DNA of 64,000 nt from a virus, in the IMG/VR virus record IMGVR_UViG_3300035670_000044, positions 32,001 through 96,000 of that record. One strand, given 5' to 3'. Below are positions 1-33,800 of this stretch, in pieces; the first letter of the stretch is position 1; each line of letters begins with the position of its first letter. The notes under the pieces are model-generated. The model had not been told where the DNA came from and ran no database searches. It saw only the letters and a list, made by a program, of their open reading frames with translations. Made by a program: the position numbers and the translations under genes.

Positions 1-2155
1 TGACGTAGGGCGCGTAGTATGCCGCGTGACCGTAGGGAACACCGACAACTCTCTTAATCAGGTTGAGCTCGTCTTGAGCTTGAGAGAGATTTTCAATGTC
101 CCCACCACAATCAATCAGGGCTACGTGCTGGGTACCAGACACACCCTCAGTCACCCCAAAGCGACCTTCGGCCGCAGACACCAGGGTCTGAGTGACCTTA
201 AGGCGCTCAGTGGATGCCTCATTGCGAGATGCGAGGTCGGAATCGGCCGAGTATGCGAGTGTGGCATACGCCTCTGGCGCCATCAAGAATCCAGGAGCGT
301 AGTAATCACCACCCATACCCTTTTCGATTCCGTACACAAAATCCTGTGCTTTGGCGGATGAAGTCAGCTTGTAACTTTCATACCCAATCTGCTCAACAAC
401 CGAAGTCAGTTTGACAACGTTGTCGTCCAGGAGTCCTTGACGATTGATTCCGGGAAGAACAGGGCTGACCAGGCCGTTTTTGGCAGTGATCCGCACCTGG
501 AGGACGTAGTCGAAGGACTGGAAACCATTCGCGACGGATTTATCCAGTCTGGCTGTAGCCCCGGCAGCGATAGCGACGGTGGGAGAAGGAGATACGGTGG
601 CGGCAGTGTCGGTAGTACGAGCAGTCACGGTGTACCGGACTCCGTTCACAACGATTACACTACCAACGCCAATTTCGGAATTAAACAAGGTGCCGGTTCC
701 GGTCACAACACCACCAGTGGTGATGGCAACAGTCCCAGTCAGAACAATGTCTTCAATGTCCGGTCGAATGAAAGGACTACCGGCAGCCGACACAAGGTTC
801 GATACTGCGTATCCGTTATTCGGAGCGTAGTTGGTACCGGAATAGTTAGTACCTGTCGGGACAGCTTCGACGGTGTAGTACTGGGCAAGATCTTTCTCGG
901 TCAGGATCGAAACAATCTCGTCCCGCAGACCCTCAGCCAACTCGTCAGGCGTGGCGCCATTCACAATGATGGCGCGGTTCTCACCCGCCACCGATACATA
1001 AAACACTTGCACGGAGTCGGGCAGGAACCCGGTACGGGTCATACCATCCACGCTTACTGTTCCGGTAGGAACGGTAGGAGTAGCTCCTCCAATTTTGGCG
1101 AAGGTAGTCGTTCCGAGGTCGTAACGCCAGTACGCGGCGTCAGCATCAGGCCATTTGTTACCAGAGCTAACTCCAGAGCTAAAATCCTTGCTAACGGCGA
1201 CAATCTTGTCATCGGCGATAGAGGTTACGCCATTCGCGGCCAGGAAATCTTCGAGGATTTCGGACTGGTCGGTAGCGGGGGCGTAGGTGCCGGCGCTAGC
1301 CGCATTAGCCGCTGCGATGAACAGGCTGACAGCCGATCCATCCACATACAGCACGGTCTCACCAGTAGAGATTTCACGGCTGTTGCAACGGAAATTAATC
1401 TCCTTCACCGAGGTGAACAACCGGACAACACCGGGGGTATTGATATTCAGGGGTGACGCATAACCACTGTCGCTAAAGTTGTAGGCAACGAACCGGTCGA
1501 TTTCGGGAAGGAGCGAGTTGTCCCGAGCAAAAATGCGGAACTTACCCTGGGTAGCCTCAGTAGCGGTCTGTTCTACTTTGTAGAAGTCGGAGAAACCGTC
1601 CGAGTTGCTGCTAGACAGGTAGTTGTACAGGTCGCGAGCGTTATCGATTGCGTCGATGGCCGTGGTCGTAATGACCCGAATCTCGTCACCGTCCGAATCC
1701 ATCACGTTAATCGGAGTACCGAAATAACGTCCGTTAACTTTCAGAGCAAACGCGTTGTAACCGGATCCGGCGCTACTTGCGTTAAGGTCGATAACGGTTT
1801 CGGGGGTGGGGGTAACCCGGGTGAAGTACAGGATACCATTAACACCGACGTTGTCGAAAAATCCTTTGACGGCATCGTAAGTGGTAAGAGCTCCCACCGA
1901 TCCGCTGGGGGTGCTACCACCAATCCGCTGCAGGTAATCCTCGGGTGAGGCTACTTGGGTGGGTGTATAGGGGAGAAAGTTAGAGTAGATGCCCTCGCTT
2001 TCATCACCGTAGTACTCATCAGCGGGAGTAGTCCCGAAGAGATAACCAACGGCGTGACTCGCCAGGGGTTGGGGAAGGCCGCCAGTAGCCGACTGAGTAA
2101 CAAATACTCCTGGTCTGGTTAGGGGGGCGGCGTTGACTGTAATCGATGATGCCAA
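1..2155 (-). CDS. Contractile tail sheath protein (3' end runs off the window)
   Basis: Not in the ORF track; the two ends were translated by hand and are in one frame. TTG start at 2155 with GGAG about 8 nt upstream: MASSITVNAAPLTRPGVFVTQ (sheath-type PGV[FY] N-terminus). At the window edge: HVALIDCGG...GHAAYYAPYV (sheath ALID / YYP motifs). Confidence 0.85.
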   Translation of the reverse strand, partial: MASSITVNAAPLTRPGVFVTQSATGGLPQPLASHAVGYLFGTTPADEYYGDESEGIYSNFLPYTPTQVASPEDYLQRIGGSTPSGSVGALTTYDAVKGFFDNVGVNGILYFTRVTPTPETVIDLNASSAGSGYNAFALKVNGRYFGTPINVMDSDGDEIRVITTTAIDAIDNARDLYNYLSSSNSDGFSDFYKVEQTATEATQGKFRIFARDNSLLPEIDRFVAYNFSDSGYASPLNINTPGVVRLFTSVKEINFRCNSREISTGETVLYVDGSAVSLFIAAANAASAGTYAPATDQSEILEDFLAANGVTSIADDKIVAVSKDFSSGVSSGNKWPDADAAYWRYDLGTTTFAKIGGATPTVPTGTVSVDGMTRTGFLPDSVQVFYVSVAGENRAIIVNGATPDELAEGLRDEIVSILTEKDLAQYYTVEAVPTGTNYSGTNYAPNNGYAVSNLVSAAGSPFIRPDIEDIVLTGTVAITTGGVVTGTGTLFNSEIGVGSVIVVNGVRYTVTARTTDTAATVSPSPTVAIAAGATARLDKSVANGFQSFDYVLQVRITAKNGLVSPVLPGINRQGLLDDNVVKLTSVVEQIGYESYKLTSSAKAQDFVYGIEKGMGGDYYAPGFLMAPEAYATLAYSADSDLASRNEASTERLKVTQTLVSAAEGRFGVTEGVSGTQHVALIDCGGDIENLSQAQDELNLIKRVVGVPYGHAAYYAPYV

Positions 2156-2194
2156 GGCAAAATCTCCGTGTTAGTCGACAGACCTTTCACTAGA

Positions 2195-2203
2195 GCTTTC
2201 AAC
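2195..2203 (-). promoter_or_regulatory. GTTGAAAGC putative late promoter of the tail sheath gene
   Basis: Exact motif starting 48 nt before the TTG start. Confidence 0.7.
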
Positions 2204-2227
2204 GGGTCGGGGACCGGAATTACAAGA

Positions 2228-2236
2228 GTTGAAAGA
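2228..2236 (+). promoter_or_regulatory. Variant motif GTTGAAAGA pointing antisense into the TnpB guide/omegaRNA
   Basis: Divergent partner of the 2195-2203 motif with a 24-nt spacer; no convincing ORF follows. Confidence 0.35.
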
Positions 2237-2298
2237 CTAAGGTGAAAATTCTCCGCTCTTGCTAGAGATTCTTTACCCCTCTGAGATTAACGTGGGTG

Positions 2299-2450
2299 CC
2301 GTGCTAGTCGACAGACTTTTGACATCCACCTACCCGTAAACGGGGAGGATTCCTAGCTTCACAGCTAGGATTTTCTGCTTCAATTCCTCAAGCTCAAACA
2401 TGGCTCTTAGATCCACAGACACTACCCGCCAGCCCGGCGGTGAGAATATT
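2299..2450 (-). ncRNA. Predicted TnpB omegaRNA/reRNA: scaffold ending at 2319 plus guide 2318-2299 (AAGTCTGTCGACTAGCACGG)
   Basis: 8-bp stem TCCTAGCT-GTGA-AGCTAGGA (2351-2370), CCCG-TTTA-CGGG hairpin and GGATGTCAA end directly downstream of tnpB. The 5' limit is approximate. Confidence 0.7.
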
Positions 2451-3632
2451 CTTTGCTGCGTTAACGTCTCGGTCTAGAACCTCTCCGCAAGACGGACAAG
2501 TCCAGACCCGGTCGTTAAGAGATAGTTTCGTTTGGCGTTGAGTACCACAGCAGCTACAGATCTGGCTGCTAGGGAAATACTGGTTAACTTTAACCAGATT
2601 TCTTCCATACCAGCTAGCCTTGTACTCTAACTGCCTGACAAACTCAAACCAGCTAGCATCGGAGATAGACTTGCTCAGACCTTTACTAGCATTTGCTAGC
2701 ATGTCTTTAACGCACAGATCTTCTACAATTACCGTTTGGTTTTCACGGATCAAGGTAGTAGATAACTTATGCAAGAAGTCTAGCCGATTGTTAGCTATGT
2801 CTTCGTGAACTCTGGCAACCTTTCTCCTCTGCTTGTGATAGTTATTACTATCTCTCTGCTTACGGGAAAGCTTTCGTTGTTTACGAGCTAGCTTAGCTTG
2901 ATACTTACGGTAGAAACGGGGGTTAGGGGCTTTAATACCATCACTGTTTGTCAAGTAGCTCTCAAGCCCAAGATCTATACCTAGAACTTTGTTATTCGCA
3001 GGTAGGGCTAGGTTTGAGTTAGGGTCTTCGTAACTAAAAGATACGAACCATTTTCCACTAGATTTCTTAGTTATAGAGATAGAAGTAGGCTTTAGATTTT
3101 CAGGCAAAGGTCTGGAGAATATTACACGCAAAGGTTGTTTAACCTTGGCAATGTAAAGCTCTCCGTTCTTCAGCCTAAAGCTTCCACGAGTTAGCCTCAT
3201 TCCGTTAACCGGGGCCTTTCTACTTTTAAACCTAGGCTTCCTTGCATTACCCCTAAACATGTTTCTAAACGCCCTATCAAGGTTTAAAACAGATTGTTGG
3301 AGGACTACGTTAGAAACTTCGGACAGGTAGAAAAGATCCGGGTCTTTCTTCCAAACCGTAATACGCTTTACATACTCATAACCATTCCATTTAGCTTTAG
3401 GGTTCGAGGCTCTCTTCTGCTCATGTTCAGCCAACGAAAGGTTAAACACCTTCCTAGCACAACCCGAGCTCCGGTTCAGGAAAACTTCCTGCTCCGGGCT
3501 GGGGTAGGACCTGAACTTGAGAGAGTAGTTTCTCATACCTCTACTATACACTATTTTTCGCAAGGCTGGGGATCACGTGCTATGCTTGTGAAAACCGTCC
3601 TAAATGCCGGGGTTTCAGACCCCAACAGACTT
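2319..3632 (-). mobile_element. Non-autonomous IS200/IS605-family (IS1341-type) element carrying tnpB only
   Basis: Right end ...CCCGTTTACGGGTAGGTGGATGTCAA (TCAA terminus at 2319). Left end AAGTCTGTTGGGGTCTGAAACCCCGGCATTTAGGACGG follows ATGAT (3637-3633), which resembles the TTGAT TAM. Removing 2319-3632 restores a sequence colinear with 2166-2235. No tnpA. The left boundary is ambiguous by 8 nt. Confidence 0.85.
2394..3536 (-). CDS. tnpB: RNA-guided endonuclease TnpB (IS200/IS605 OrfB)
   Basis: N-terminal [18 protein letters not shown]; RuvC-I GIDLG, RuvC-II VEDL, zinc ribbon CSCCG..CPSCG, Ruv[14 protein letters not shown]. All catalytic acids are present. Start moved to ATG 3536, which follows AGAGGT. 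Confidence 0.95.
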
Positions 3633-3641
3633 ATCATTAAA

Positions 3642-3650
3642 GCCTTCAAC
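3642..3650 (-). promoter_or_regulatory. Variant motif GTTGAAGGC reading into the tnpB element
   Basis: One mismatch to the consensus; paralogous to the 2195-2203 motif; has a divergent partner GTTGAAGGG at 3675. Confidence 0.5.
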
Positions 3651-3705
3651 TGGACGGGAAGAAAAATTACAAACGTTGAAGGGTCTTTAATGGGGGGGGG
3701 TCGAC

Positions 3706-4002
3706 TCACATCGCTACCGACTCGGTACCATACGCACTATACAACTCATACAAGGATGTCATAAGCCAATCCGAGCACAACGAATCTCCACACTTATCAG
3801 TCCCCATCATCCGGACAACCCGTCTGACCAGGTTGTTGAAATCCTCCGGGCTAATAACCTTCGACACGTACTTCAGGTAACGGTTAAGCTCGTTGACATC
3901 CTGATCCTTAACAACCCGATACAGGATCACCATGTATTGAAGTATCTCAGTAGATTCCATTTCATCGCTAAACCTCTGTAGTTGCGGGGCAGACGGGGAC
4001 AT
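3706..4002 (-). CDS. Hypothetical protein
   Basis: 98-aa ORF closely packed behind 4009-4524. Confidence 0.6.
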   Translation of the reverse strand: MSPSAPQLQRFSDEMESTEILQYMVILYRVVKDQDVNELNRYLKYVSKVISPEDFNNLVRRVVRMMGTDKCGDSLCSDWLMTSLYELYSAYGTESVAM

Positions 4003-4008
4003 AATCAG

Positions 4009-4524
4009 TTAGTTAGTAGGGGGTGAAGATTCACTACCGAACCCATTTGATCCAGTAATACCTTTGACGTTTTTGTCCATCTGGTCCATTGCCTCTCTGT
4101 GTATTTGGCACATGGCGACAAATTTTGACATAGGGACACACTCCATGTTAAAAACATCCTGAAACGATCCGTTTTGAATGGCGTAGCAATTTTTAAGCCA
4201 TGCCTCTTTTGACATATACGACTTCAGGATGTTTTCTTGCACAGCCATGTACAGAGAACGGATAGTCAACGGAACCAGTCCCCCGAAGTTAACTCCGGGG
4301 CGAACAGACAGTGTCCCTAGCAATTCGATCACATCACGGCTCGAGAGAGTGGGTTTGTCCCCAGACAGGAGGGAGTCCAGGTACTCCAAATCCCTTCCAG
4401 TGATGTCCCTAAAAGATGCCTGATTACCCCGAGCATCCGTACACGTTATGGTGTAATCGGAATTAATCCTCGTCTTCAGCTTGGCTTTTGGAGTCGTCTT
4501 CCTTCTCCTCCTCTCCGGTGTCAT
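4009..4524 (-). CDS. Hypothetical protein, possible second part of a tail assembly chaperone
   Basis: The only early ATG (4524) lies in an A7 run inside the upstream ORF; FRDITGRDLE resembles chaperone motifs. Confidence 0.5.
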   Translation of the reverse strand: MTPERRRRKTTPKAKLKTRINSDYTITCTDARGNQASFRDITGRDLEYLDSLLSGDKPTLSSRDVIELLGTLSVRPGVNFGGLVPLTIRSLYMAVQENILKSYMSKEAWLKNCYAIQNGSFQDVFNMECVPMSKFVAMCQIHREAMDQMDKNVKGITGSNGFGSESSPPTN

Positions 4525-4867
4525 TTTTTTCTTCGGACCCCAGCAACTCGTTAATAGCGTCACCAAGCATCTTGATTTGCTTAGACCGTAAACGCCTCGC
4601 ATCTCTGAGGGTTAACTTTCTGCCGCCCGGTTCAGGGCTATGCAAGATGCAGATCACCTTAAGGGTGGCAGGAATCTCATCAAGGGTTTTGTCATTGCTG
4701 ATTTTAGTGATTTCGATCAGGTCGTCGGCGCTGGGTTCCTGCAAGGAGAGAAATTTACCAGGAGCGATCTCGACAGAAATAATTTCCGGATCTCCAAAGT
4801 CAAAATCGGATACTGAGTTAGTAGCTACGGTTTCCAGCTCACGCATGGATTTAGAAGACAGGGCCAT
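4463..4867 (-). CDS. Putative tail assembly chaperone
   Basis: 134 aa, acidic; LSLQEPSADDL...LRSKQIKMLGDAINELLG resembles myovirus (P2 E / Mu gp41-type) chaperones; lies near the sheath gene. Confidence 0.55.
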   Translation of the reverse strand: MALSSKSMRELETVATNSVSDFDFGDPEIISVEIAPGKFLSLQEPSADDLIEITKISNDKTLDEIPATLKVICILHSPEPGGRKLTLRDARRLRSKQIKMLGDAINELLGSEEKNDTGEEEKEDDSKSQAEDED

Positions 4868-4915
4868 AGGGTTAATGGGTGACTGGTGGGGGTATTTCCT
4901 CCACTATACATATGT

Positions 4916-4924
4916 ACTATAGCA
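4916..4924 (-). promoter_or_regulatory. Host sigma70-type extended -10 (TGCTATAGT)
   Basis: TGn-TATAGT about 50 nt upstream of ATG 4867; the same 9-mer occurs at 51542-51550. Confidence 0.5.
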
Positions 4925-4942
4925 CACTTTGTCGGATAGTAA

Positions 4943-4951
4943 GTTGAAAGC
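4943..4951 (+). promoter_or_regulatory. GTTGAAAGC putative late promoter
   Basis: 35 nt before GTG 4978. Confidence 0.7.
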
Positions 4952-4977
4952 CATATGTAAGAGTTGCTAGTATCGCT

Positions 4978-5565
4978 GTGGCTGTCCAAACCAACCCGTA
5001 TCAGCATTGGGAGGACGGACGAGAAAACTCTGATTACCGGGGTCGTGAGACTCAGGCCAGCTCATTGACACGTCAAATGTTGAGGCAGCCTGAGTACTTG
5101 ACCAGTAGCAACAGGGTCAACCCGGGGCCCTTGAGAAACACCCGGGCTTCAGCAGCGGACAGAGTAAACCAGGTTCCGCATGAGACCCGCAGCGAGGATA
5201 TGTGGGGATGGCAGAGGTGGACAGAAAGGGATTACTACTTGGTTGAGTCTGAAACATCTAGCAATCTTCTGGAGGAAACAGATTCTGGTACCAGGGTGGA
5301 CAACGGGGTTGTATACCCGGACTACAGCAAACCGAACGACTGTCCGACTATTATATCTCCTCCTGTTGTGTTGAAAACCTTTGATTTTACCCAGGAACAA
5401 CCATCAGATGAGTGGCTGATTGTCCACAACTTGGGGTTCTATCCCTCCGTAGAGCTATTTAGTAGTTCTAGGGCAGAGATCGACGGGGACGTGGTCCATG
5501 TAAACGTGAATTCCCTCCGGGTGTTCTTCAACCTGCCAATTACCGGCTTTGCCAGACTGAACTAA
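4978..5565 (+). CDS. Putative virion structural protein
   Basis: C-terminal FTQ..PSDEWLIVHNLGFYPSVEL beta-domain typical of phage tail-associated proteins. Confidence 0.6.
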   Translation: MAVQTNPYQHWEDGRENSDYRGRETQASSLTRQMLRQPEYLTSSNRVNPGPLRNTRASAADRVNQVPHETRSEDMWGWQRWTERDYYLVESETSSNLLEETDSGTRVDNGVVYPDYSKPNDCPTIISPPVVLKTFDFTQEQPSDEWLIVHNLGFYPSVELFSSSRAEIDGDVVHVNVNSLRVFFNLPITGFARLN

Positions 5566-30828: not shown

Positions 30829-33800
30829 ATGGCTGGCAAACAATCGATCCGGGCGGATAAAACACCCCCCCGGCGCAGCCAAGGTGTTAAACAGATGGTG
30901 GATACTGGGGGATTTGCCCTCTCCACAGAGCTAGGTGCCCCGCTGGTAACAGAAAAGGACGAATATAGGAGGAGTGAGTATGGGAAAGATACGGCGCCTA
31001 GCGTTGTCCTGAACTCCGAATCATATCAATCTGATGCTCTAAGTACCGCCAACAACTTCAGCAAGGGTAGTCCGGCCGCTTTACCTATAGTTGAGAGGTT
31101 CGCCGAGCAAAGTGAGGTATCCCGATCGTTGCTCGGGATCAACCGCGAAACTTCCCAGCAAGGCCTGTTCGGTAACGTGTCAACCTACGGTCTAGACCCC
31201 AAAGACTGGAGAGTTGACACACCGGACACCCGTTTCAGTGGAGATATGTGGTGGTGGATTCGTCGTCCCAGTTCCACAGGGAGTTATTACGAGGCTAAGG
31301 TTACTGAAGACGATAAAAACGCAGCGATTGTACTATCGGCAAGCCCTACACCGTTCCTAGAGCCCCCACGGCCGGGTATCCAGGACCAACTGATTAATCC
31401 GGGGGGTGCAGAGCGGTATACTGGATGGGGGCAATATATTAACTCAGTAGTAGCATTGTATTTGTTCCGGTACATGGTAGAAAAAACAACACCGTCTCAA
31501 TGGGAACAATTCAATCTTGGGTATCTGCTGTCAACCTATCCTCCGATCCAAAACAACAACGGCACATATAGTTTTAACGAACTGTACTGGGATAAGATCT
31601 GGCTGGACATCAAACAAAACAGATTTGGCCCGATTAGTAACTATCCGGTCATCCCAAGCGGCCGAGCATACAATTTTAACACGGCCACCATACCAAACTG
31701 GAGAGATAATCCTGGCCTGTGGGGCAGTAGCAGCGTCATAATTTCCGAGGCTACTAGCCGTCTACCACAAGATCTCGATATCTCCTGGGACTCATTCTTC
31801 TTTAGCTCAACACGGGTGTATTACCCATCCGATCGCCCGGAGGACCGTGGTCACTACCGGATCCAGACCAATCCCCAGGCGGACTTGTGGGAAAAGTACT
31901 TCGGGTTAAGGTACGACCAGCTTCGTAGCGACCTAAGGAATTGGGAGTTCACCGTACACCCGAACGAATCTAGTGTCACCCAACTTGAAAAAGATCTGAA
32001 ACTTCCATACTTCCTTCTTGACACACCCCTAGTCGCCGACAGAGCCAATAACGTCTTCTCGGACCTGTGGCCGTCTGAGTCGTTTGGGGAACAGATTGAC
32101 CTGCCGACCAACACCAATAGGATTGGTGGCGTTCAAGGTATCCGTAGCGAGATCACACTGAAGTCAATTCGGTCGTTTCGGTATCAGCCAGGGAGGATCA
32201 GTGGATTCACGTATGGGGTTAAGCTCAGTGAGATCGGGGCCGGACCAGGCACGGTGCTCGAGTTTGGAATTGAAAACGACACAGACGCGTACATGTTTCG
32301 GCTGAGCAACGGTGCGAACTTCTCAATCGTTCGCCGGTCCACTGTCCCGTTAGAGGACACGCCATTCTTGCAGGGCTCTAAATACGCCGAAAATACCCGG
32401 ACCATCGTCCGTAACGGCCAAGTCCAGTACGAGACGGTGATTGATCAAAAGATCATGAATGGGGACTCGTTGGGGGGAGAGGGAGAGTCAGGGTATATTC
32501 TCGATCCAGATACCGTCACCATGTATAAGATTGAGTTTGGGTGGTACGGGGCTATCGGGGCGAGATTCTATGCGTACATCCCAACCGGTAACGGTGACTG
32601 TCGTTGGGTGACCATGCACACCCTGGTTATCGAAAACCAGCTCGGGCGCCCATGCCTCGCCGATCCTTTCTTCTACTTTAAGTATCGATTGCTGGTTTCC
32701 GACTCCTCAACGATTCGTGTCGACCAGTACGTGAATAAGTTCGGTGCGTCCTACTATATTGACGGGTATGACGAAGGAACTCTATACAGCCTAAACGCAC
32801 AATCTAAAGTTCGTTACCTCCCCAATCCCAAATTTTCCCAGTCCAAGACTCAACTCAACGCGATTGACTGGACGACATTGATGGGTGTTAAGCCTCGGCA
32901 GTTTCTGGTGAACCGTTTTGGTACCGAACTTTACAACAAAAAGGAGATTTTCCCAGAAAACGCCTTTGTTTACTCTCAGCAAGACTGTGAAATAAAGATT
33001 ATCCGTCAACGAGGGTGTCCGGAGTGGGCGTACACACACCAGGAAGGATACCGTTGGTCTTCATTACCCGAGTCCCGGCGCATCAAAGGTAAGTTCACTA
33101 TCGACCCTTACTTCACCCTGGACCGCCCCGCTCTCGGCATTTCAAATGATGACGGGTCCAGTCACAGTGCGGTAGCCGCGTACAGTACGGGTTCGGAGGG
33201 ATCGTTCAGAAACCCGGTTGATTCTACATCGTGGGACGTTAACGTAATCGGCACCCAAGTCGTTCGGATGATCGCCGATGACCTCTACGCTACTTACCCG
33301 TCACCTCTTTACGACTTCAGCGGTGGATCATTAGCTCTCAAACTTCAACGGGACTCAGGGAATCAAGTCTACCTCTCAAGCCGTCAATCTTTCCCCACAC
33401 CTACTAACGTCCACCTACCCAATCTTTACACCCCCGTCTCTCCCTACAATCAAGGATACGATATTGAGTTCGATTACTTCCGCCGTGACCAAATACTCTT
33501 GAGTACTGTTGATGTACTTAGCGATGAATTTTATATTTATTGGGTGGGCGGACCTGGCAGTAATCCGTCCCCCGGACACGCAACCTCACTACGTTTCGGA
33601 TTCGTTTGGCCGGAGACAACAGACACAGGTAGTGACCTGTACGCTACCTCCCCCGACCAGGATTGGGGTATAGAGCTCAACGCATCCTGGGATGGACAAA
33701 ATTTTTACGAAGGACTGCCTTACGATTTTGTCAGTGACCACCCATTGAACACGTTATACGTTGAAACAAATCCAACATTAAATGTCGACACTTACAATCT

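Follow-up and report, generated by a model that had tools for sequence, protein, structure and literature searches.

In IS200/IS605 elements such as ISDra2, a structured RNA lies over the 3' end of the gene for the TnpB nuclease and stops at the element boundary, the flanking DNA gives the guide, and the element is inserted immediately 3' of a short motif, the transposon-adjacent motif (TAM). TnpB preserves its transposon by cutting the vacated donor site. The TnpB element described here has the same layout, and it lies in a 64,000-nt window (positions 32,001 to 96,000) of the IMG/VR virus record IMGVR_UViG_3300035670_000044, which comprises 127,396 bp and is estimated to be 79% complete; coordinates are those of the window throughout, and all features of the locus are on the minus strand. 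The element is placed between TGAT and AAGTCTGTCGACTAGCACGG, inside the core promoter/leader of the tail-sheath gene of the phage. We suggest that it is part of a transposase-less, RNA-guided homing or competition module, a reading to which we would assign a probability of roughly 0.55 from the sequence comparisons set out below.

The free-standing homing endonucleases of the T-even phages (SegF, SegG, MobE), as a 2026 review (PMC13565253) presents them, resemble this locus in several ways: the nuclease gene sits between conserved genes and its relatives are without it, the cognate site is found in those nuclease-lacking relatives, the resident site is a few substitutions apart from it, and the flanks look co-converted. 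Unlike these enzymes, however, recognition here would be by guide RNA, with self and non-self distinguished through the TAM and the seed, and the element disrupts a promoter and carries a spare one. A preprint (Mears et al., bioRxiv 10.1101/2025.02.20.638934) reports that TnpB drives IS605 through populations of plasmid copies, and the same logic, in which the guide records the site, element-free copies are cut and bearers win, appears under “transposon non-restorative homing” in the review (PMC13565253). The present locus differs from that case in lying on a phage replicon, in occupying an essential promoter site and in comprising a module that includes a candidate resistant replacement promoter. 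For co-infecting phages, the review treats such homing as a theoretical possibility. In work on Anabaena cyanophages, a 2026 preprint reports that the tnpB of phage A-1(L) is identical to host copies, its role being only speculated upon there. In the literature on TnpB in connection with phage homing, co-infection, marker exclusion or cyanophages, we found no demonstrated phage case and no description of a promoter-replacement architecture.

With respect to IS200/IS605 elements at large, the locus is unusual in that it belongs to a lytic-type phage genome and to a viral/metagenomic clade, its nearest cellular copies (the best matches in 185,579 species genomes) being at most 48% identical in TnpB. 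It is also unlike them in that the guide template is not continuous target but a retained fragment of 20 nt with foreign DNA behind it, and in that a replacement promoter travels with the element. The module runs from a promoter, up to the TAM position, through the TnpB element, the 20-nt remainder of that promoter and a 63-nt spacer to a second, heterologous promoter. Calling each promoter/leader a cassette, we find the following features:

2 to 2155, minus strand: tail sheath gene (PHROG 17610, E 3.1e-174), with a TTG start at 2155, running off the window start.
2166 to 2235, minus strand: cassette 2, the resident sheath promoter/leader, comprising CTTTCAAC...GTTGAAAGCT, GTGAA and an 18/20 pseudo-target.
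2236 to 2298, minus strand: 63-nt spacer between the guide template and cassette 2.
2299 to 2318, minus strand: predicted 20-nt guide template, left over from the 3' part of cassette 1 and matching the sheath core promoter/leader of the relative L003 at every position.
2319 to 3632, minus strand: TnpB element of 1,314 nt, its ends set by comparison with the related elements L111, L112, L114 and L031.
3633 to 3682, minus strand: 5' part of cassette 1, comprising CCTTCAAC...GTTGAAGGCT (promoter motif, 3650-3641)...ATGAT (TAM position, 3637-3633), paralogous to 2235-2186 and now facing into the element.
3706 to 4002, minus strand: upstream open reading frame (ORF) of 98 aa, from the ORF list, family unassigned.

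The right end of the element, GGATGTCAA (2327-2319), is followed by the 20-mer AAGTCTGTCGACTAGCACGG (2318-2299), and a second copy, AGGTCTGTCGACTAACACGG (2185-2166), agrees with it at 18 of 20 positions, the mismatches falling at position 2 (2184) and position 15 (2171). The first copy is preceded by GTCAA, the right end itself, and the second by GTGAA (2190-2186), and ATGAT (3637-3633) forms the five bases preceding the left end. With up to three mismatches allowed, the 20-mer has only these two sites in the window, and 0 of 100 shuffles contained any match. The second copy is positioned between GTTGAAAGCT (2203-2194) and the GGAGA ribosome-binding site (2167-2163). The 20-mer, its 18/20 copy, the two mismatch positions and the GTGAA and ATGAT motifs had been given in an initial annotation of this DNA, and all of them check out on the minus strand. 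That annotation had also stated that the similarity stops at nt 20, which is true of the 3' side only; on the 5' side the similarity continues across the element. When the left flank (3682-3633) is joined in silico to the 20-mer, the product gives a gapless alignment to 2235-2166, in which 53 of 68 positions agree once TTCAAC is reached (2233-2166). This alignment takes in the 20-mer and, before it, an inverted repeat, the promoter motif and the TAM position. Within the window, a 16-nt signature of the cassette is confined to these two places. Because the 5' similarity continues across the element, the 18/20 match is the tail of a split, diverged duplication of the whole cassette. The 1,314-nt element (3632-2319) splits one copy of a sheath promoter/leader cassette of about 70 nt, and a second, diverged allele of the cassette (2235-2166), 63 nt downstream, directly precedes the sheath gene. 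The idea that the guide is aimed at the phage's own promoter hence does not stand: the resemblance arises because the element occupies a spare promoter copy.

In all 28 IMG/VR loci of relatives obtained by a sheath-protein search (several of the contigs being near-duplicates), a single promoter cassette lies directly before the sheath gene, and none of the 28 carries tnpB. The closest of them, L003, whose sheath protein is 92% identical, reads ...GTTGAAGGCTTTAATGAT, then AAGTCTGTCGACTAGCACGG, then AGATTTTGCC and then the TTG sheath start. This is the empty site: it consists of the left flank of the window, the 20-mer (ATGAT, 20/20) and the sheath leader, and the homology to L003 after the element ends exactly at nt 20 of the 20-mer. 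The initial annotation had anticipated an element-free relative with TGAT and the 20-mer at the sheath promoter, and L003 has them directly before its sheath ribosome-binding site. Over the final 117 nt up to the insertion point, L003 and the window differ only in the length of a C-run; further upstream the identity drops to 72-88%. In an IMG/VR scan, from which the window's own record was possibly excluded, an 18-nt core (with R at one position) was found only in the L003 and L027 contigs. Among the 28 contigs the TAM position reads TGAT in 13, CGAT in 4, TGAA in 4, CGAG in 4, TGTT in 2 and AGAA in 1, and the combination of TGAA with G at guide position 2 occurs in four of the five contigs that share the GTCTGTCGACTAG core (L004-6 and L027, the exception being L003). 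A blastn search of the phage GenBank collection with 6 kb returned only 89-nt sheath matches to S-TIM5-like cyanophages and no close isolate.

The promoter that now serves the sheath gene is of foreign origin. Cassette 2 is 90% identical to L027 over 80 nt (72/80), as against 81% to L003 over 78 nt, and its 3' 34 nt equal L027 except for a unique G-to-A change at guide position 15. Cassette 2 shares with L027 both TGAA at the TAM position and the mismatch to guide position 2; with the change at guide position 15, these are the differences of the working copy that had been noted initially. On the other side, the 47 nt directly after cassette 2 are identical to L003, and the first 300 nt of the sheath gene are 92-97% identical to L003 versus 84-89% to L027. 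By these comparisons the working sheath promoter is a foreign, L027-type allele set between L003-like sequence. We considered cassette 2 as an in-place duplicate of cassette 1 and rejected this origin: 15 of 68 nt differ between the two, although the sequence next to them is 92-100% L003-like, and L027 is the closer match to cassette 2.

The site of insertion coincides with a conserved part of the promoter. The sequence GTTGAAAGC has 34 exact copies in the genome where about one is expected, with a TAGA box 4 nt later (GTTGAAAGC-N4-TAGA), and looks like a phage-specific promoter motif. We also note that GTTGAAAGC followed by NNN-A-T-A-G-A is found mostly upstream of ORFs and on both strands, examples in the window lying at 2195-2203, 8268, 10235, 20532 and 20566. 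A sigma-70 promoter scan of 2100-3760 returned 0 sites. The TAM position of the sheath cassette falls on motif positions 14-17 and overlaps the TAGA box, the protospacer starting right after it. Because the TAM position overlaps this conserved box, the target would be the constrained core of a late-type promoter, and a constrained target site of this kind suits a homing nuclease. The left end of the element starts with AAGTCTGT, so that the first 8 nt past the TAM position are preserved in cassette 1; for this reason that promoter copy may still be active and read into tnpB.

On every sequence criterion, the element belongs with the tnpB-only TnpBs of the IS200/IS605 type. Its ORF runs from an ATG at 3536 to a stop at 2394 and encodes 380 aa, with the same three Pfam domains as ISDra2-type proteins, OrfB_IS605 (PF01385, 1.2e-30), Cas12f1-like TNB (PF07282, 1.4e-25) and HTH_OrfB (PF12323, 2.9e-10), and it matches the ISDra2 TnpB structures 8bf8/8exa/8h1j over residues 2-370 (E 1.7e-62). 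The RuvC D-E-D triad (D188, E272, D357) aligns to GVDVG, the E in “gtehl” and DRDENAA of ISDra2, and both the triad and the zinc-finger cysteines (C327, C330, C347, C350; CxxC...CxxC) are invariant in the 21 aligned sequences, in keeping with the initial observation that all RuvC catalytic residues are present. In contrast to ISDra2-type elements, the record contains no TnpA; neither a Y1 (PF01797) nor a serine (PF00239) transposase was matched in its 127,396 bp, which fits the tnpB-only subclass (IS1341-type elements). Close relatives of this TnpB (58-99% identical) were found only in viral or metagenomic contigs, and those with element DNA are L031 (58%), L111 (71%), L112/L113 (72%) and L114 (63%); the proteins P0004 and P0005 are 88% and 86% identical. 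A single-sequence TnpB search in IMG/VR gave no match.

A predicted guide-RNA (omegaRNA) scaffold occupies approximately 2500-2319 and overlaps the 3' end of the tnpB ORF. Over the last ~180 nt of the five elements compared at the DNA level (window, L111, L112, L114 and L031), 49 pairs are predicted, 10 of them with compensatory changes. An Rfam scan of 1900-4000 at E <=1 returned no guide-RNA family. The conserved sequence ends at GTCAA in all five elements, beyond which they are unrelated, and eight of eight copies of a distant relative in one Endozoicomonas genome end in the same GGATGTCAA. The right-end boundary had been placed there from the beginning, and because conservation stops at GTCAA in the relatives, this boundary, and with it the 20-mer as the guide template, is well supported. 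In those Endozoicomonas copies the right-end terminus is conserved while the flanking motif differs. At the other end, the element starts with AAGTCTGTT and has a hairpin at 3623-3609; the left ends of the clade elements have G[GT][CT]TGTT in common, with a hairpin after it. An 8-nt sequence, AAGTCTGT, is directly repeated at the two sides of the element (3625-3632 and 2311-2318), such that its left end equals the first 8 nt of the guide. IS200/IS605 elements are not known to make target duplications. The repeat may preserve the downstream part of the promoter or reflect microhomology at integration.

We propose that these parts would work together as follows. The promoter of cassette 1 would now read into tnpB, and processing of the 3' end of the transcript would yield a guide RNA with the retained 20 nt as its guide. 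Cassette 2 would drive the essential sheath gene and would be spared from cutting by TGAA instead of TGAT and by the mismatch at position 2. A co-infecting genome of the L003 type, with its single unsplit promoter carrying TGAT and a 20/20 target, would be cut by TnpB at the sheath promoter. Repair from the carrier genome would then copy the whole module with both promoters, a non-restorative or “intronless” form of homing with co-conversion of the flanks; alternatively, the rival genome might simply be lost after the cut.

This last alternative can be put as an explanation in its own right, in which TnpB would be a weapon that cuts L003-type sheath promoters during co-infection and removes rivals from the burst, leading to exclusion and not to homing. 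The same anatomy speaks for it, and its target would likewise be the promoter of an essential late gene. The review cited above notes that, where the genomes are too divergent for conversion, classical phage homing endonucleases can bring a competitive advantage through the killing of competitors (PMC13565253). Against this reading, there is ample homology to L003 for repair, with 117 identical nt on the left and 47 identical nt plus 300 nt at 92-97% on the right, and the presence of the module in a second, diverged background implies transfer. We hence consider killing without copying to be improbable.

The observations that bear on transfer come from public sequencing runs that contain a 2-kb stretch across the locus. 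We compared contigs from three DNA runs (X4, X6 and X8, all freshwater and under three study codes, possibly from one campaign) and one RNA run (X11). The region 1500-3900, including the whole module, is bridged by single contigs in X4 (a 51.7-kb contig) and X6, and is covered in X8 by three contigs with a 29-nt gap (2899-2927). The comparison lists 40 of 111 variant places, and difference counts were derived by subtraction between contigs that agree at all of these 40 in the regions covered by both. Relative to the window there are 69 differences in 1500-2174 (sheath), 4 in 2175-2898, 0 in 2899-3150, 2 in 3151-3521, 2 in 3620-3772, at most 17 in 3522-3619 and 3773-3900 together, then a diverged stretch of 127 nt, and 34 in 4028-4265. 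The module is therefore approximately 99.5% identical and both of its flanks are approximately 86-90% identical. A near-identical module in diverged flanks is the pattern that would be expected if the module had moved between backgrounds.

A rival interpretation of the locus is that of a stranded and functionally irrelevant insertion sequence that landed once in the sheath promoter, with a TnpB that is inactive or decaying and a module shuffled only by ordinary phage recombination. In this version of events, either a prior tandem duplication of the promoter had made one copy redundant, or a second promoter was captured later by recombination, as the insertion harmed sheath expression. The record has no transposase, the sheath and its flanks are mosaic among the relatives regardless, and other members of the clade sit in unrelated places, as plain insertion sequences do, with L031 splitting an ORF. 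The TnpB of the window differs from its 99% relative P0003 at five residues, and three of its substitutions at otherwise conserved positions are seen in the window only: L24S (L in 19 of 19 others), T197N (T in 20 of 20) and E149K (E in 17 of 20). These could indicate a copy that is decaying after fixation. Set against this are the intact ORF with all of its catalytic and zinc-binding residues, a module that is approximately 99.5% identical although its surroundings are 10-14% different to either side, the retention of a target fragment of exactly 20 nt next to a working copy that differs exactly at the TAM position and in the seed, and the fact that none of the 28 relatives has a tandem promoter that could predate the insertion. 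On balance, we regard a stranded insertion as rather unlikely.

The decaying-copy substitutions are not the only observations that weigh against a homing or competition module. Phage genomes are mosaic anyway, and a conserved block between diverged flanks needs no nuclease; moreover, the right edge of the conserved block cannot be placed from the 40 of 111 variant places listed. The 63-nt spacer found no BLAST match in the rest of the genome or in the loci L003-L192; it does not fold significantly (z 0.05) and shows nothing resembling a terminator on the minus strand. A perfect target is present in only one of the 28 relatives, and the present range of any drive would therefore be narrow. The TGAT-type TAM proposed at the outset is not established, as the insertions of the clade are flanked on the left by ATGAT (window), GCGAT (L111), CTGAA(G) (L112/L113) and ATCAT(G) (L031), which are TGAT-like and not uniform; with four such differing flanks the TAM is not defined, and the TGAA beside the L112/L113 insertion argues that TGAA may not protect. 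Nor can a TAM be borrowed from more distant relatives: one Endozoicomonas genome has at least eight copies of a TnpB relative approximately 41-48% identical (L212, L223, L224, L236, L252, L253, L254 and L259), and the copies are flanked by a TTTACC-like sequence, a left flank common to four of them (L224, L236, L252 and L259).

The possibility that the TnpB-guide complex binds without cutting must also be weighed, whether as tuning of sheath expression at the resident 18/20 site or as autorepression at the left junction. For the latter, TGAT followed by AAGTCTGT(T), an 8-9-nt seed match at 3637-3624, lies in the promoter that reads into tnpB. In TldR proteins the RuvC nuclease is not intact. 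These are described as nuclease-dead, TnpB-derived, RNA-guided repressors (PMC10705468), and like them the locus combines a TnpB-type protein with a guide resembling a promoter region. According to a 2026 paper (PMC13507860), guide length can switch TnpB between regulation and cutting, and ours is the only one of the four clade elements with left-end sequence in which the left end past the TAM position repeats the first 8 nt of the guide. Unlike in TldR, however, the catalytic triad is intact here, and at the resident sheath site the TAM position is altered and position 2 of the seed is mismatched, which together disfavour the TldR-like repressor that the initial annotation had offered as an alternative; the 8-nt repeat, in turn, is partly just the conserved left end G[GT][CT]TGTT of L111, L112 and L031. 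A regulatory role thus seems very improbable to us.

Returning to the homing or competition module, we would tentatively go one step further, and suggest as a possibility, held with clearly less confidence, that the locus is a self-contained, RNA-guided phage gene drive, in which the nuclease would travel as one unit with its hard-wired 20-nt guide and with a replacement promoter that resists cutting. Under such a drive, the element could occupy an essential late promoter at no cost to the carrier, the alleles with TGAA and G at position 2 would be escape alleles in an ongoing arms race, and TnpB could throttle its own promoter through the TAM and the 8-nt seed match of the left junction.

The locus is a natural and testable case, since the predicted susceptible, the candidate resistant and the module-bearing alleles are all present in sampled phage populations. 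Its architecture illustrates how an essential promoter can be occupied by a selfish nuclease at no cost, namely by bringing along a spare copy that is predicted to be uncuttable. If the proposal is true, it would extend the biology of homing endonucleases to RNA-guided enzymes and would help explain the frequency of tnpB-only genes in phage genomes.

Some further observations concern the wider clade and the neighbourhood of the locus. The presence of a second near-copy of the guide nearby is confined to this element, one of five in the clade. The L031 element (3912-5209, 1,298 nt, in an IMG/VR phage contig) splits an ORF whose joined flanks read in one frame. The L112 element (1416-2721, with the same insertion in L113) is followed after 4 nt by the ATG of a 33-codon ORF; it has a TGAA(G) left flank and is a second leader or promoter-proximal case in the clade, without duplication. 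Upstream of the module, the 98-aa ORF (3706 to 4002) matched no Pfam and no PHROG family; the end of its coding sequence is also conserved in the 28 relatives, where it immediately precedes the sheath promoter.

In the metatranscriptome X11, a single run in which DNA may be present in the RNA library and gaps in cover prove nothing, contigs lie on 1500-2174, 2294-2643, 2910-3521 and 3620-3772, with none on 2175-2293 or 2722-2909. One high-depth sheath contig of this run ends at 2174, 12 nt past the TAM position of cassette 2. The 24 terminal letters of that contig are, we presume, Illumina adapter. At most, this contig end hints faintly at an RNA 5' end here.

Finally, each cassette contains an 8-nt inverted repeat with arms 24 nt apart, CCTTCAAC...GTTGAAGG in cassette 1 (3675-3682 and 3643-3650) and CTTTCAAC...GTTGAAAG in cassette 2 (2228-2235 and 2196-2203). 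The sole Rfam match, a miRNA, was discarded as being at chance level and merely reflecting the CTTTCAAC/GTTGAAAG inverted repeat. The repeat may be a hairpin, a dimer binding site or the remnant of a divergent promoter motif, and the single difference between the two inverted repeats is compensated on both arms.

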